Counted from the stretch's first letter, positions 2,572 to 25,565 are shown. The stretch is DNA of 32,000 nucleotides from Candidatus Saccharimonadota bacterium (GCA_965230905.1 OZ246396.1:660001-692000); one strand, 5' to 3'. A program made the numbers and translations. Notes: generated from the letters alone by a model not told the origin.

Positions 2572-3762
2572 CTAAGCGATTACTTTCGCAACCACTCCGG
2601 CTCCAACGGTTCGTCCTCCTTCACGGATGGCGAAACGGGTTCCTTGTTCGAGAGCTACTGGAGCTCCAAGTTCTACGATCATGTTTACGTTGTCTCCAGG
2701 CATGATCATCTCAACTCCAGCTGGGAGTTCGATGGTACCGGTTACGTCCGTAGTTCGGATGTAGAATTGAGGCTTGTATCCTTTGAAGAATGGAGTGTGT
2801 CGTCCTCCTTCTTCCTTGCTCAGGATGTACACTTCAGATTCAAACTTGGTGTGAGGCTTGATAGAACCAGGCTTAGCCGCCACTTGTCCACGTTGAATTT
2901 GTTCACGTTCAACTCCTCGCATGAGAAGTCCAACGTTGTCTCCAGCTTCTCCACGGTCGAGAGTCTTACGGAACATTTCTACTCCGGTAACGACTACCTT
3001 ACGTGTGTCGGTGATACCGATGAGTTCAATTTCATCGTTCACGTTTACAACCCCTTGTTCAATACGTCCTGTAGCTACTGTTCCACGTCCCTTGATAGAG
3101 AACACGTCTTCAATAGACATAAGGAAAGGCTTGTCGAGTTCACGTTGAGGTTGAGGGATGTATTCATCCAAAGTCTTGAGCAATTCTGCAACGGCATCTC
3201 CACCAGGTCCCTTAGGATCTTCGAAGGCCTTGAGAGCAGAACCCTTAATGATTGGAGTAGTGTCTCCTGGGTATTCGTACTTGTTGAGAAGGTCGCGGAT
3301 TTCCATTTCTGAAAGTTCAGCGATTTCTGGATCAGCCATGTCCATCTTGTTGAGGAACACAACGATGTAAGGAACGTTAACCTGACGAGCGAGCAAGATG
3401 TGCTCACGAGTCTGAGGCATAGGTCCGTCTGCGGCAGAACATACGAGAATGGCACCGTCCATTTGAGCGGCTCCAGTAATCATGTTCTTAACGTAATCGG
3501 CGTGACCTGGACAATCTACGTGTGCGTAGTGTCTCTTATCGGTCGTGTACTCTTGGTGAGAGGTAGCGATCGTGATTCCACGAGCTTTTTCTTCCGGAGC
3601 GTTGTCGATTTGGTCGTAAGCTACGACGTGGTTCTCAGCGCCACCGAAACGAGCCGCTGCTACAGCGGTGAGAGCAGCCGTAAGAGTGGTCTTCCCGTGG
3701 TCAACGTGACCAATGGTTCCCACATTAAGGTGCGGCTTTGAACGGTCGAAGTTCCCTGCCAT
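2572..3762 (-). CDS. tuf: translation elongation factor Tu
   Basis: 396 aa with GHVDHGKTT (G1), DCPGHADY (G3), NKMD (G4) and GSAL (G5). The length is that of a full EF-Tu. Confidence 0.98.
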
Positions 3763-3807
3763 ATCGTTATGGTGATAAAAAAATAAATGGCTATTTGAAG
3801 CGAGGGC

Positions 3808-22016: not shown

Positions 22017-25000
22017 CTAGATCTCTTCTTCCATATCTGGCTCCTTGGGAGCCTCTTCACCATCGCTATCGTCTTCAAAACTGTCGCCTTCTTCACTGAA
22101 TCCGGCTTCACCGCCTTCAGCTACGACTGGTCCTGGAGAATCCAATAATGGCTCTTCTTCTTCAGGTTCCACGTATTCTTCTTCGTCCACGGCAACGTCT
22201 TCTTCGAGTTGCAGCAAGTCCACATTGAGACCGAGTGACTGGAGTTCCTTAACGAGTACGTTGAAGGATTCCGGTGTACGAGGTTTGCGGATGGCTTCAC
22301 CCTTGATGATGGATTCGTACGCTTTAGCACGTCCGTAGGTATCGTCGGATTTGATGGTGAGCATTTCTTGCAGGATGTGCGCGGCACCGTATGCCTCGAG
22401 CGCCCATACTTCCATTTCTCCGAAACGTTGTCCTCCGTGTTGCGCCTTTCCTCCGAGAGGTTGTTGCGTAACCAGAGAGTAAGGTCCAACGGAACGAGCA
22501 TGGATTTTGTCTTCAACTAAGTGGGCCAGTTTGAGCATGTAGGCAATTCCCACGGTGCTCTTGTGGTCAAAGGCTTCACCGGTCTTACCATCAAAGAGTT
22601 GGAGTTTTCCATCTTCTGGCAGACCTGCCTTTTTAAGCATTTCTTTGATTTGTTCGTTGGTCACTCCGTTCAAAGTAGGAGTGGCTACGTACATGTTCAT
22701 GGTTTGAGCCGCCCAACCTAAGTGGGTCTCAAGGATTTGTCCAATGTTCATACGGCTGGATACTCCGAGTGGGTTCAAAACGATGTCCACCGGCGTTCCA
22801 TCTGGCATGTAAGGCATGTCTTCTTGAGGCACGATGATGGATACAACCCCCTTGTTCCCGTGACGTCCGGCCATTTTGTCTCCTACTTGGATACGGCGGG
22901 TTTGTGCCACAGAAACTCGGATTTGTTCAATAACTCCGTTTTCGAGTTCGTCTCCGTTTTCACGAGAGAAGACTTGTACGCTCACCACTTTTCCTCCTTC
23001 TCCACCTGGGAGACGTAGGGAAGTGTCTTTCACGTCGCGAGCCTTGTCTCCGAAGATTGCGCGGAGCAGACGTTCTTCTGGAGTGAGTTCGGTTTCTCCT
23101 TTTGGAGTGATCTTACCCACAAGAATGTCTCCTTCACGTACGGACGCTCCCACACGAACCACTCCGTTGTCGTCGAGGTCTTTGAGGCGAGCTTCTCCTA
23201 CGTTAGGAATATCACGAGTAACGATTTCTGGACCTAGTTTGGTGTCTCGTACATCTACGGTGAAGTCTTCAATGTGCACGGAGCTGAATTTGTCTTCCTT
23301 CACAATGCGGCTGGAAAGAATCACGGCATCCTCGAAGTTGTAACCTTCCCAAGGCATGTAGGCCACGAGAATGTTTTGTCCGAGCGCCAAGTCTCCCATT
23401 TCGGTAGAAGCTCCATCCGCAAGGATGTCTCCTGCCTTGATCTTTTGTCCGGCATTGCAGATTGGACGTTGGTGGAACGAGCTTCCTTGGTTGGTTCGGC
23501 GGTATACGTCGAGGTTGTAGGTCGCTTTTCGTCCAGAATCGTAGATCACGTCGATGCGGGTTCCGTCTACATAAGAAACGGTTCCATCTTCTTCGGCGAT
23601 TTCAGTTTGGTTGGTGTTACGTGCAGCAAGCCCTTCCATTCCGGTTCCAACCACAGGAGTGGTGGGGCGGAGCAGAGGTACGGCCTGACGTTGCATGTTC
23701 GATCCCATGGAGGCACGAGTGTTGTCGTCGTGTTCCAAGAATGGAATCAGGGAAGTGGACACGGAAATAATCTGTTGAGGAGAAATATCCATGTGGCTCA
23801 CTTCTCGTTCGGTAACGGTAATAGGTTCTCCCATTTTTCGTGCGCTCGCGGTGTCTTCAATGAGCTCTCCATCGTGCGTCAAAGGCGTGTTGGCTTGTGC
23901 GTATACGATTTCATTCTCATCTTCGGCATCGAAGTAGCTGACCTTGCTTCCAAGGTGGGCACGAACGGAGATTTCCTTCAGGTCCTTTTCTTTCATGAGT
24001 GCTTTCGCGTCTTTTTCATCCATCACGGTTCCTTTCTTAACTCCAGCAGCTCCTTCGGCGAGGGTGTGACCAATAGCGGCCTTACCATCGTTCTTAACAG
24101 AGTGCATCACTTCACGGAGAGGAGTTTCAATAAACCCGTATTTGTTGATCTTAGCGTAAGAAGCCAAGTGAACCACGAGTCCAATGTTTGGTCCTTCAGG
24201 CGTAGCAATAGGACAGATACGTCCGTAGTGGGATGGATGCACGTCACGAACGTCAAACGACGCACGTTCACGTGAAAGTCCTCCAGGTCCCATGGCTGAC
24301 AGACGGCGCTTGTGCTCCAATTCTGAAAGTGGGTTGGTCTGATCCATGAACTGAGAAAGCTGTGAGCTCGCGTAGAATTCGCGGAGAGCCGCGGTGATTG
24401 GACGAGAGTTGATCAGCTGAGTAGGTGTCACGGTATCCAGATCCATAACGGTCATACGATCCTTAGCGATACGTTCGGTTCGAAGCAGACCTACACGGAA
24501 CTTGTTTTGAACGAGTTCTCCAACCGGACGAATACGTCGGTTAGAAAGGTGATCGATGTCATCGGGAGTTGCTTCCTTATTATTGAGGCGGATGAGGTGC
24601 TTCAAGATGAGGATGAAGTCGTCCACTTGGAAAGTGTGGAACTTACGTTCGTTGGGAGTCTTGAGGTCGAAACGTCGGTTGATCTTGTAACGAGCTACCG
24701 ATCCCATGTCGTACTTCTTGTAGTCGAAGAAGAGCGATTCGATGAGAGCCTTAGCGTTTTCTGGAGTCGCGAGATCTCCTGGTCGGATCTTTTTGTAGAT
24801 TGCTTTGTAGGCTTCGTCGGTGGTTTTAGCAGGATCTTTCTCAAGAGTGAGAAGAATGAAATCACGGATTGGGTCGTTGATTACATCTTTAAAGAGATCC
24901 ATGATCTTTTTGTCGGTATCGAAACCGAACACGCGGAGCATAGAAGTGATGTAGATCTTTCGTTTTCGGTCGATCTTCACGGTGATAACACCTTTTTTAT

Positions 25001-25565
25001 CGGTTTCAATTTCCAGCCAGGCTCCACGTTTTGGGATGATCTTAGCGTTGTGCATTCCTGCAGCCGCACCGTTCTTGGAGAAAAATACTCCGGGAGAACG
25101 TACGATTTGGGAAACCACCACACGTTCGATTCCGTTTACGAGGAAGGATCCGTCGCGAGTCATGAGAGGAATAGGTCCCAAGAACACGTCCTGTTCCTTG
25201 ATTTCTCCGCTTTCCTTATTAATGAGCTGTACGTGCACCTTTAAAGGAGCTTCGTAAGAAAGGTTCTTCGTGCGGCACTGCTCGGGAGTGTATTTGCATT
25301 CACCCAGAGAGTGGTCGAGGAAGTGAAGTTCGAGCTTCTTTCCAGAAAAGTCCGTGATAGGAGTGATTTCTTCAAGAAGTTCGCGAATACCTTCGTTCAG
25401 GAACCATTCATAAGATTCGGTTTGAATCTCAATAAGATTCGGCATCTCTGCTTTTCCGTGGAGATCGACAAAATATTTCCGATCCAAAGGCTTGGTGGAA
25501 ATACGTCCTGTCTCTTTTACCGCGGGTTTGGAGGAAGCTTTAGACTTGCTTGCGGTTTTAGCCAT
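22017..25565 (-). CDS. rpoB: DNA-directed RNA polymerase subunit beta
   Basis: 1182 aa with the Rif-cluster region SQLSQFMDQTNPLSELEHKRRLSAMGPGGL, plus GDKMAGRHGNKGVVS and FGEMEVWALEAYGAA. A 65-aa highly acidic C-terminal tail is present. Confidence 0.98.
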   Translation of the reverse strand: MAKTASKSKASSKPAVKETGRISTKPLDRKYFVDLHGKAEMPNLIEIQTESYEWFLNEGIRELLEEITPITDFSGKKLELHFLDHSLGECKYTPEQCRTKNLSYEAPLKVHVQLINKESGEIKEQDVFLGPIPLMTRDGSFLVNGIERVVVSQIVRSPGVFFSKNGAAAGMHNAKIIPKRGAWLEIETDKKGVITVKIDRKRKIYITSMLRVFGFDTDKKIMDLFKDVINDPIRDFILLTLEKDPAKTTDEAYKAIYKKIRPGDLATPENAKALIESLFFDYKKYDMGSVARYKINRRFDLKTPNERKFHTFQVDDFILILKHLIRLNNKEATPDDIDHLSNRRIRPVGELVQNKFRVGLLRTERIAKDRMTVMDLDTVTPTQLINSRPITAALREFYASSQLSQFMDQTNPLSELEHKRRLSAMGPGGLSRERASFDVRDVHPSHYGRICPIATPEGPNIGLVVHLASYAKINKYGFIETPLREVMHSVKNDGKAAIGHTLAEGAAGVKKGTVMDEKDAKALMKEKDLKEISVRAHLGSKVSYFDAEDENEIVYAQANTPLTHDGELIEDTASARKMGEPITVTEREVSHMDISPQQIISVSTSLIPFLEHDDNTRASMGSNMQRQAVPLLRPTTPVVGTGMEGLAARNTNQTEIAEEDGTVSYVDGTRIDVIYDSGRKATYNLDVYRRTNQGSSFHQRPICNAGQKIKAGDILADGASTEMGDLALGQNILVAYMPWEGYNFEDAVILSSRIVKEDKFSSVHIEDFTVDVRDTKLGPEIVTRDIPNVGEARLKDLDDNGVVRVGASVREGDILVGKITPKGETELTPEERLLRAIFGDKARDVKDTSLRLPGGEGGKVVSVQVFSRENGDELENGVIEQIRVSVAQTRRIQVGDKMAGRHGNKGVVSIIVPQEDMPYMPDGTPVDIVLNPLGVSSRMNIGQILETHLGWAAQTMNMYVATPTLNGVTNEQIKEMLKKAGLPEDGKLQLFDGKTGEAFDHKSTVGIAYMLKLAHLVEDKIHARSVGPYSLVTQQPLGGKAQHGGQRFGEMEVWALEAYGAAHILQEMLTIKSDDTYGRAKAYESIIKGEAIRKPRTPESFNVLVKELQSLGLNVDLLQLEEDVAVDEEEYVEPEEEEPLLDSPGPVVAEGGEAGFSEEGDSFEDDSDGEEAPKEPDMEEEI

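Follow-up and report, generated by a model that had tools for sequence, protein, structure and literature searches.

The rpoB-rpoC pair and the str genes rpsL-rpsG-fusA-tuf are among the most conserved gene neighbourhoods of bacteria, and they serve as anchors for annotation and for judging the quality of metagenome-assembled genomes (MAGs). Small multigene insertions into this conserved operon cluster have been described in Proteobacteria and Bacilli: tusDCB, for instance, separates rpoBC from str, bfd-bfr separates str from S10, and nrdHEF is found within the rpoBC operon itself (PMC6735719, PMC8046335). Duplication or transposon-directed routes are favoured in these papers. Here we analyse the same cluster in an ultra-small, Peribacteria-type bacterium from the Candidate Phyla Radiation (CPR), where unrelated genes occupy most of the junctions between the core genes. 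The window analysed comprises 32,000 nucleotides, genome positions 660,001-692,000 of the single 1,306,353-bp contig OZ246396.1 (genome G000, 48.25% GC); positions given below are those of the window unless stated otherwise. No paper describing such a cluster invasion in CPR bacteria was found in the literature.

Gene identities were taken from a listing of open reading frames (ORFs) and from Pfam scans of the window. The six core genes, rpoB (22017-25565; 1182 amino acids (aa), six RNA_pol_Rpb2 domains, 94% identical to its orthologue in the same genus), rpoC (17226-21041; 1271 aa, RNA_pol_Rpb1 domains 1-5), rpsL (14187-14600; Pfam S12), rpsG (13716-14183; Pfam S7), fusA (5035-7122; EF-G domains) and tuf (2572-3762; EF-Tu domains), all lie on the minus strand in the canonical order, as an earlier note on this DNA had stated. 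Four of the five junctions between them are occupied. One extra gene is found between rpoB and rpoC, four between rpoC and rpsL, none between rpsL and rpsG, five between rpsG and fusA, and one between fusA and tuf, and the inserted DNA amounts to 11,465 bp within a span of 22,994 bp. The earlier note had described every junction as interrupted and had put the unrelated genes at about 13 kb; both statements were too high, since rpsL and rpsG are adjacent here, and no gene was found between them in any genome examined. Its gene counts held for three junctions (one, four and one). The sixth gene that it placed between rpsG and fusA is no gene of its own: this plus-strand ORF at 12012-12638 is the shadow cast by h175 (12069-12596), a conserved gene on the minus strand. 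Two inserted genes are indeed on the opposite strand (16408-17148 and 12702-13712), and the rpsG-fusA junction does contain a toxin-antitoxin pair with an antitoxin of family PF04014 and a PIN toxin of family PF01850. About 80 related genomes were then used as a comparison sample and checked for the presence or absence of genes at each junction.

As in the invaded clusters of Proteobacteria and Bacilli, order and strand are kept, and a few unrelated genes with no role in translation lie between the units; several of these (h340, vapBC, SLH1347 and the islet between rpoC and rpsL, all described below) are absent from relatives. Unlike in those cases, however, both outer junctions are occupied in addition to the four inner ones, three of the occupied junctions (rpoB-rpoC, rpsG-fusA and fusA-tuf) lie within classical operons, the host belongs to the CPR, no trace of transposons or duplication was found, and rplKAJL is unlinked. 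The locus also resembles flexible genomic islets, in which one spacer holds different and often orphan genes in each relative, the flanks are intact, an integrase is lacking and the cargo is slightly GC-poor. It differs from these in that the genes on either side of the sites are the cell's best conserved and most strongly expressed, that two of the residents, a CaCA antiporter gene and h175, appear to be old and vertically inherited, and that the site is no more variable than its flanks when judged from one contig of one relative. The case is an extreme CPR instance of the known "invasion" of a conserved operon cluster, and it is neither a mobile island nor a misassembly.

We suggest, with a probability of about 0.7, that the arrangement results from a neutral flux of small gene cassettes into the spacers of anciently autonomous units, together with a few old residents that have become locked in. 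On this explanation, the cluster serS-rpoB-rpoC-rpsL-rpsG-fusA-tuf-S10-spc-alpha would long have been cut into autonomous transcription units: promoter-rpoB-(embedded gene)-rpoC-terminator, promoter-rpsL-rpsG, promoter-fusA-terminator, promoter-tuf-terminator, and a long S10-spc-alpha polycistron. The spacers, which run from a terminator or stop codon to the next -35 box, would be selectively neutral, and therefore the gain, loss and replacement of small cassettes that goes on throughout the genome would take place there too. Unrelated genes would thus be found at four junctions because the units have their own promoters and because genome-wide gain and loss of small genes reaches the junctions. 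The order and strand of the core genes would be kept by selection or inertia. Insertion itself might have occurred by illegitimate recombination, or by horizontal acquisition without a dedicated element. The inserts would fall into two layers. The old layer would consist of the co-transcribed CaCA gene, whose slot is taken by an SSB paralogue in most of the order and in part of the class, of h175, and probably of h336. The recent layer would consist of SLH1347, shared with the nearest species only, of vapBC and h340, which are unique to this genome, and of the variable islet between rpoC and rpsL.

Promoter motifs were found upstream of all four units. That of rpoB, the first gene of unit 1, is TTGACA-16-TAAAAT (25717-25690) and precedes a structured 5' leader (promoter and leader together 25590-25717, minus strand); that of fusA (unit 3, 4998-7186 from promoter to terminator) is TTGACT-16-TATAAT (7186-7159). 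Each matches the sigma-70 consensus at 11 of 12 positions. The motifs of rpsL, which heads unit 2 at 13716-14663 with rpsG behind it (TTGCAT-17-TAAACT, within 14601-14663; 7/12), and of tuf (unit 4, 2522-3840 from promoter motif to terminator; TTGCAT-17-TACAAT, about 3808-3836; 8/12) are not near the consensus. The description of all four as near-consensus promoters is thus correct for rpoB and fusA and too generous for rpsL and tuf, although the latter two motifs are conserved throughout the order, whether or not there is an insert upstream (as judged by eye in printed upstream regions). Of 20 relatives across the order, 17 carry the fusA motif, and the three genomes without it are those in which rpsG and fusA are still adjacent; for rpoB, promoter and leader alike are conserved within the genus and the family.

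Terminators were predicted from hairpins, whose folds were compared with those of shuffled sequences to give z-scores. The hairpins after rpoC, fusA and tuf fold far better than the shuffles and, being U-run hairpins with z-scores from -3.6 to -5.4, bear out the terminators proposed for these three genes. The first is a putative two-way terminator for rpoC, the last gene of unit 1, and the convergent gene h246 (17157-17186; a stem of 13 bp between an A-run and a U-run, z -3.6), and is also present in the relative G001. The second, behind fusA, is a hairpin with a U-run (about 4998-5021; z -4.9), and the third, behind tuf, is again of the two-way type (2522-2549; 12-13-bp stem, z -5.4). A weaker hairpin (13645-13685; z -2.2), 35-75 nt beyond rpsG and within the last 25 codons of the convergent gene h336, resembles a terminator for the rpsG transcript. 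Part of this hairpin, at the 3' end of h336 (13641-13662), matches the left arm of the tuf terminator (2515-2536) at 20 of 22 nt.

We infer from these motifs that they would act as promoters and terminators. The str genes would accordingly form separate promoter-to-terminator units, rpsL-rpsG, fusA and tuf, throughout the order, and because the fusA, tuf and rpsL motifs are conserved order-wide, this split would be ancient. The view that the ancestral operons have been split into separate units is thus supported for the str genes and not for rpoB-rpoC, which appears to be an unbroken, expanded operon; nor can the split be seen as a feature of this genome, since its relatives have the same motifs.

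The rpoB leader (25590-25690, minus strand) starts directly after the promoter with a conserved hairpin, GCTCTC...GATTGTGTTG...GAGAGC, which is followed by a second hairpin and U7 (z -4.1). Throughout the family the first of the two is found again, and by eye both of its arms are changed in G007, G019 and G023. These hairpins are candidates for a leader or attenuator. An Rfam scan of the window, rpoB leader included, gave no match at E <= 0.1, and RNAalifold gave no consensus structure for 12 rpoB leaders because the alignment was shifted.

The slot between rpoB and rpoC contains a gene for a 316-aa antiporter of the CaCA (Na+/Ca2+ exchanger, Na_Ca_ex) family (21038-21988, minus strand; PF01699, 9.8e-42). 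It begins 28 nt past rpoB, its stop codon overlaps the start codon of rpoC (ATGA), and motif scans found neither a promoter nor a terminator between rpoB and rpoC. On the strength of the short spacer, the overlap and the missing internal signal, rpoB-CaCA-rpoC is judged to be a single operon that has been expanded and not split. The CaCA gene has the same position in 11 of 12 genomes of the family (9 of 10 in the first sample, plus G134 and G005), and thus appears to be an old resident that has been kept in the family. Elsewhere the slot is mostly filled by ssb (PF00436), which is found there in 13 of the 19 families of the order (in 11 of these in every sampled genome). Outside the order, 9 of 20 genomes of other orders in the class have it, a TGA-recoded lineage among them, as against 0 of 20 genomes sampled from other classes of the phylum. 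G071 and G032 have ssb and CaCA together in the slot, and in some families of the order rpoB and rpoC are adjacent. The spacers that flank an embedded ssb are mostly 22-41 nt long and lack promoter or terminator motifs. For CPR bacteria, literature searches turned up no description of a gene lodged between rpoB and rpoC.

A tree of SSB proteins places the embedded copies as sisters of copies linked to rpsF. In the family of the present genome the embedded ssb is gone, and this genome keeps the rpsF-linked ssb (genome position 226.5-227.0 kb) and two other paralogues. Across the ssb loci inspected (L135, L134, L136 and L138 among them) there are 3-4 SSB paralogues per genome in three clades: canonical copies that end in DLPF, short divergent copies, and a third clade made up of the rpsF-linked and the rpoBC-embedded copies. 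The embedded proteins end in DLGL in G018, G071, G090 and seven further copies, and in IDELS in G215. In two genomes from other orders of the class, G235 (locus L097) and G224 (locus L098), no rpoB was found within 3.5 kb upstream of rpoC; here the two genes may be separated by a larger insert or may be unlinked.

Two of the genes between rpsG and fusA also seem to be of long standing. The small lipoprotein gene h175 (12069-12596, minus strand) encodes a signal peptide and a lipobox-like motif whose cysteine, Cys21, is invariant; its match to LPAM_1 of Pfam is weak, and an Atlas search yielded leads that point to lipoprotein families. In 10 of 10 genomes of the family and in G020 and G029, which belong to two other families, it occupies the rpsG-fusA junction, as it does in 19 named MAG loci. 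The records of these loci are called Candidatus Peribacteria, Peregrinibacteria or Gracilibacteria, and on these names the present organism is assigned to the Peribacteria-type CPR bacteria. This distribution points to an old resident of the junction. The plus-strand gene h336 (12702-13712), which has no match in Pfam or NCBIfam, converges on rpsG with a gap of 3 nt. Orthologues with 35-44% identity are present at the same place in G005, G001 and G008, and in these genomes and the present one the gap to rpsG is 1-3 nt, so that h336 is probably an old resident as well. The inserted genes had all been called accessory; not all of them are recent, as h175, the antiporter gene and probably h336 show.

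The remaining inserts would be younger. SLH1347 (7880-11923, minus strand) encodes a surface protein of 1347 aa with C-terminal SLH repeats (PF00395, 1.2e-25). A 76% identical orthologue is found at the same site in G005, the closest species (core genes 91-93% identical at the nucleotide level), in which the order is h306-tuf-fusA-SLH1347-h175-h336-rpsG-rpsL; G003, G006 and G001 lack SLH1347 at this site. Since it is common to both species, it would have entered before the present species and G005 separated, in their common ancestor. The vapBC-type pair (7215-7804, minus strand) consists of an antitoxin of the AbrB/MazE fold (7586-7804; PF04014, 72 aa) directly upstream of the PIN toxin (7215-7589; PF01850, 124 aa), with a 4-nt overlap, which is the gene arrangement of a VapBC system. 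The h340 cassette between fusA and tuf (3885-4961, minus strand) comprises a putative promoter of its own, TTGACG-16-TATTAT (4961-4934), and a 340-aa ORFan (3885-4907); a near-length search among 5.8 billion proteins found no homologue but the protein itself. Both are lower in GC than the genome average of 48.25% (41.6% for vapBC; 43.6% for h340, with 35% at third codon positions). In G005 the vapBC block (7223-7907) is replaced by 20 nt and the h340 block (3816-5033) by 28 nt, and both blocks are absent from the other relatives examined. The breakpoints fall exactly between the upstream stop codon or terminator and the next -35 box, so that every unit stays whole. A similarity of 13-14 nt that spans the left vapBC breakpoint may be microhomology or chance.

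The junction between rpoC and rpsL holds an islet of four genes (14664-17148): h246 (16408-17148, plus strand), a DUF5674 protein gene (16010-16378, minus strand), which alone among the four has a Pfam match, h116 (15658-16008, minus strand) and h305 (14664-15581, minus strand). None of the four is present at this site in G003, G006 or G001. Instead, two unrelated genes of 112 and 326 aa are found in G005, a gene of 297 aa in G003 and six genes in G012, and there are none in G006 and G001. Different genes thus occupy the same site between conserved flanks, and the islet appears to be recent and variable in content.

No integrase or transposase Pfam domain and no tRNA was found in the window, nor were direct or inverted repeats found that bracket the inserts, and the inserted genes have no second copy in the genome that would hint at duplication, save for paralogues that share the SLH domain. 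An integrative mobile element or genomic island was rejected on these grounds (no integrase or recombinase domain, no tRNA, no bracketing repeats), in agreement with the earlier note, which had seen no integrase, transposase or flanking repeats to explain the insertions. As a control for the frequency of insertion and deletion, one 70.6-kb contig of the same-genus genome G003 was aligned to the present genome (about 80% nucleotide identity). There are about 5 events in the 25.6 kb from rpsJ to rpoB (about 0.2 per kb), about 10 in roughly 34-40 kb of flanking DNA (about 0.25-0.3 per kb), and none in the 11-kb S10-spc-alpha block. Compared with the flanks, the junctions therefore seem to be affected at an ordinary genomic rate, and the polycistron seems to be protected.

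It is rather improbable that the junctions are true integration hotspots served by a dedicated mechanism, such as site-specific cassettes whose ends are conserved, or recombination where promoter or terminator sequences are shared. In favour of it, one cluster has four to six occupied junctions, the genes between rpoC and rpsL vary among all close relatives with no shift of the terminator or the rpsL promoter, and the 13-14 nt at the left vapBC breakpoint might be read as microhomology. The density of events in the G003 alignment is nevertheless no higher than in the flanks, the inserted genes do not share copies of one promoter, and there is neither an integrase or transposase nor a direct or inverted repeat around any insert. 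Recombination between terminators that resemble repetitive extragenic palindromic (REP) elements was rejected, the three hairpins being essentially unique in the genome. An assembly artefact, i.e. chimeric joins at some junctions of a metagenome-derived genome, is hardly credible. The lineage is uncultured, and the h340, vapBC and four-gene junctions were not seen in the other genomes examined; however, the genome is a single 1.306-Mb contig with 99.45% completeness and 0.38% contamination, the CaCA, h175, h336 and SLH1347 junctions recur in independent MAGs, and the exact inserted proteins are found on 3-10 contigs in NCBI, ENA and Logan, including contigs of 1,307,106 and 1,301,131 bp. In addition, the breakpoints are clean and lie in spacers, with flanking genes, promoters and terminators all intact.

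It is unlikely, although less so than a hotspot, that the placement of the residents is functional, with CaCA/SSB, h175, h336 and an ABC exporter gene upstream of rpoB being kept because their expression or their products are coupled to the transcription and translation genes. The positions of CaCA/ssb and of h175 are fixed over distances from family to class, the CaCA stop codon overlaps the rpoC start codon, the exporter orthologues stay within the cluster though at different junctions (G007, G024), and h336 converges closely on rpsG in four genomes. In several families, however, the embedded gene has been lost and rpoB is next to rpoC, h336 and h175 have been lost in many genomes, and the recent cargo (the toxin-antitoxin pair and the ORFan) has no plausible link to translation; a fixed position is also expected anyway for a gene that is locked in an essential operon. 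A stronger form of this idea, and a doubtful one, less likely again than a hotspot, is that the old residents (SSB/CaCA, h175 and the ABC exporter) stay where they are owing to a coupling of their synthesis with the production of RNA polymerase and translation factors, as a lineage-specific regulatory design and not as neutral clutter. Co-translational membrane insertion, tethering the rpoBC mRNA and the locus to the envelope, is a possible form of such coupling in cells as small as these. Some of our own observations also weigh against a neutral flux of cassettes into ancient spacers. The long fixed positions of CaCA/ssb and h175 could mean positional selection, which pure neutrality does not explain. 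The promoters and terminators are motif matches, and the promoter motifs of rpsL and tuf fit the sigma-70 consensus at just 7-8 of 12 positions. The control for insertions and deletions is one contig of one relative, and at about 80% identity some of the "gaps" in it may reflect genes that have diverged. As for the vapBC, h340 and four-gene junctions, this genome's own assembly is the only one in which they are seen.

At the outer junctions, three genes, h306 (plus strand), h321 (plus strand) and h119 (minus strand), lie between tuf and rpsJ (152-2512), and rpsJ starts 22 nt to the left of the window. The S10-spc-alpha genes (genome position 647.7-660.0 kb) are contiguous, uninterrupted and colinear with those of G003 and G007. 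On the other side of the cluster, the region 25822-30777 was found by Pfam to contain an ABC exporter gene (plus strand), h139 (minus strand), a UDG-family gene (plus strand), h237 (plus strand) and serS (29476-30777, minus strand). In many relatives serS is located upstream of rpoB, either directly or with 1-3 genes in between; in this genus the four other genes separate the two. rplJ-rplL are at genome position 180.5-181.5 kb, about 500 kb from rpoB, and rplKAJL is thus indeed absent directly upstream of rpoB. It was not replaced by the divergent ABC exporter, as had been suggested; serS is the upstream neighbour in many relatives. Orthologues of the exporter (25822-27585), 46-63% identical, are found at varying junctions of the same supercluster: the gene is divergent upstream of rpoB here, lies at rpsJ/rplC in G007 and at rpsG/fusA in G024.

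The cumulative GC skew of the genome climbs monotonically over the whole 1.306 Mb, with no turn at an origin or terminus. The plus strand has an excess of G in plus-strand genes (+0.112) as well as in minus-strand genes (+0.049), and gene strands are balanced. A similar strand disparity has been reported in a genome of the Microgenomates; the same paper gives Peregrinibacteria genomes a normal skew (PMC7143001).

In one class of the CPR, the rpoBC-str neighbourhood would thus survive only as an order of independent units, with an rpoBC unit that has long carried a foreign gene. The locus offers a natural test of the idea that concatenation of operons protects the cluster, as the polycistronic S10-spc-alpha block is untouched and the units with predicted promoters of their own have been invaded. 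Another gain is a set of conserved promoter motifs from a lineage that lacks experimental transcription data. For annotators, interruptions of this kind in CPR MAGs should not be taken as misassemblies.

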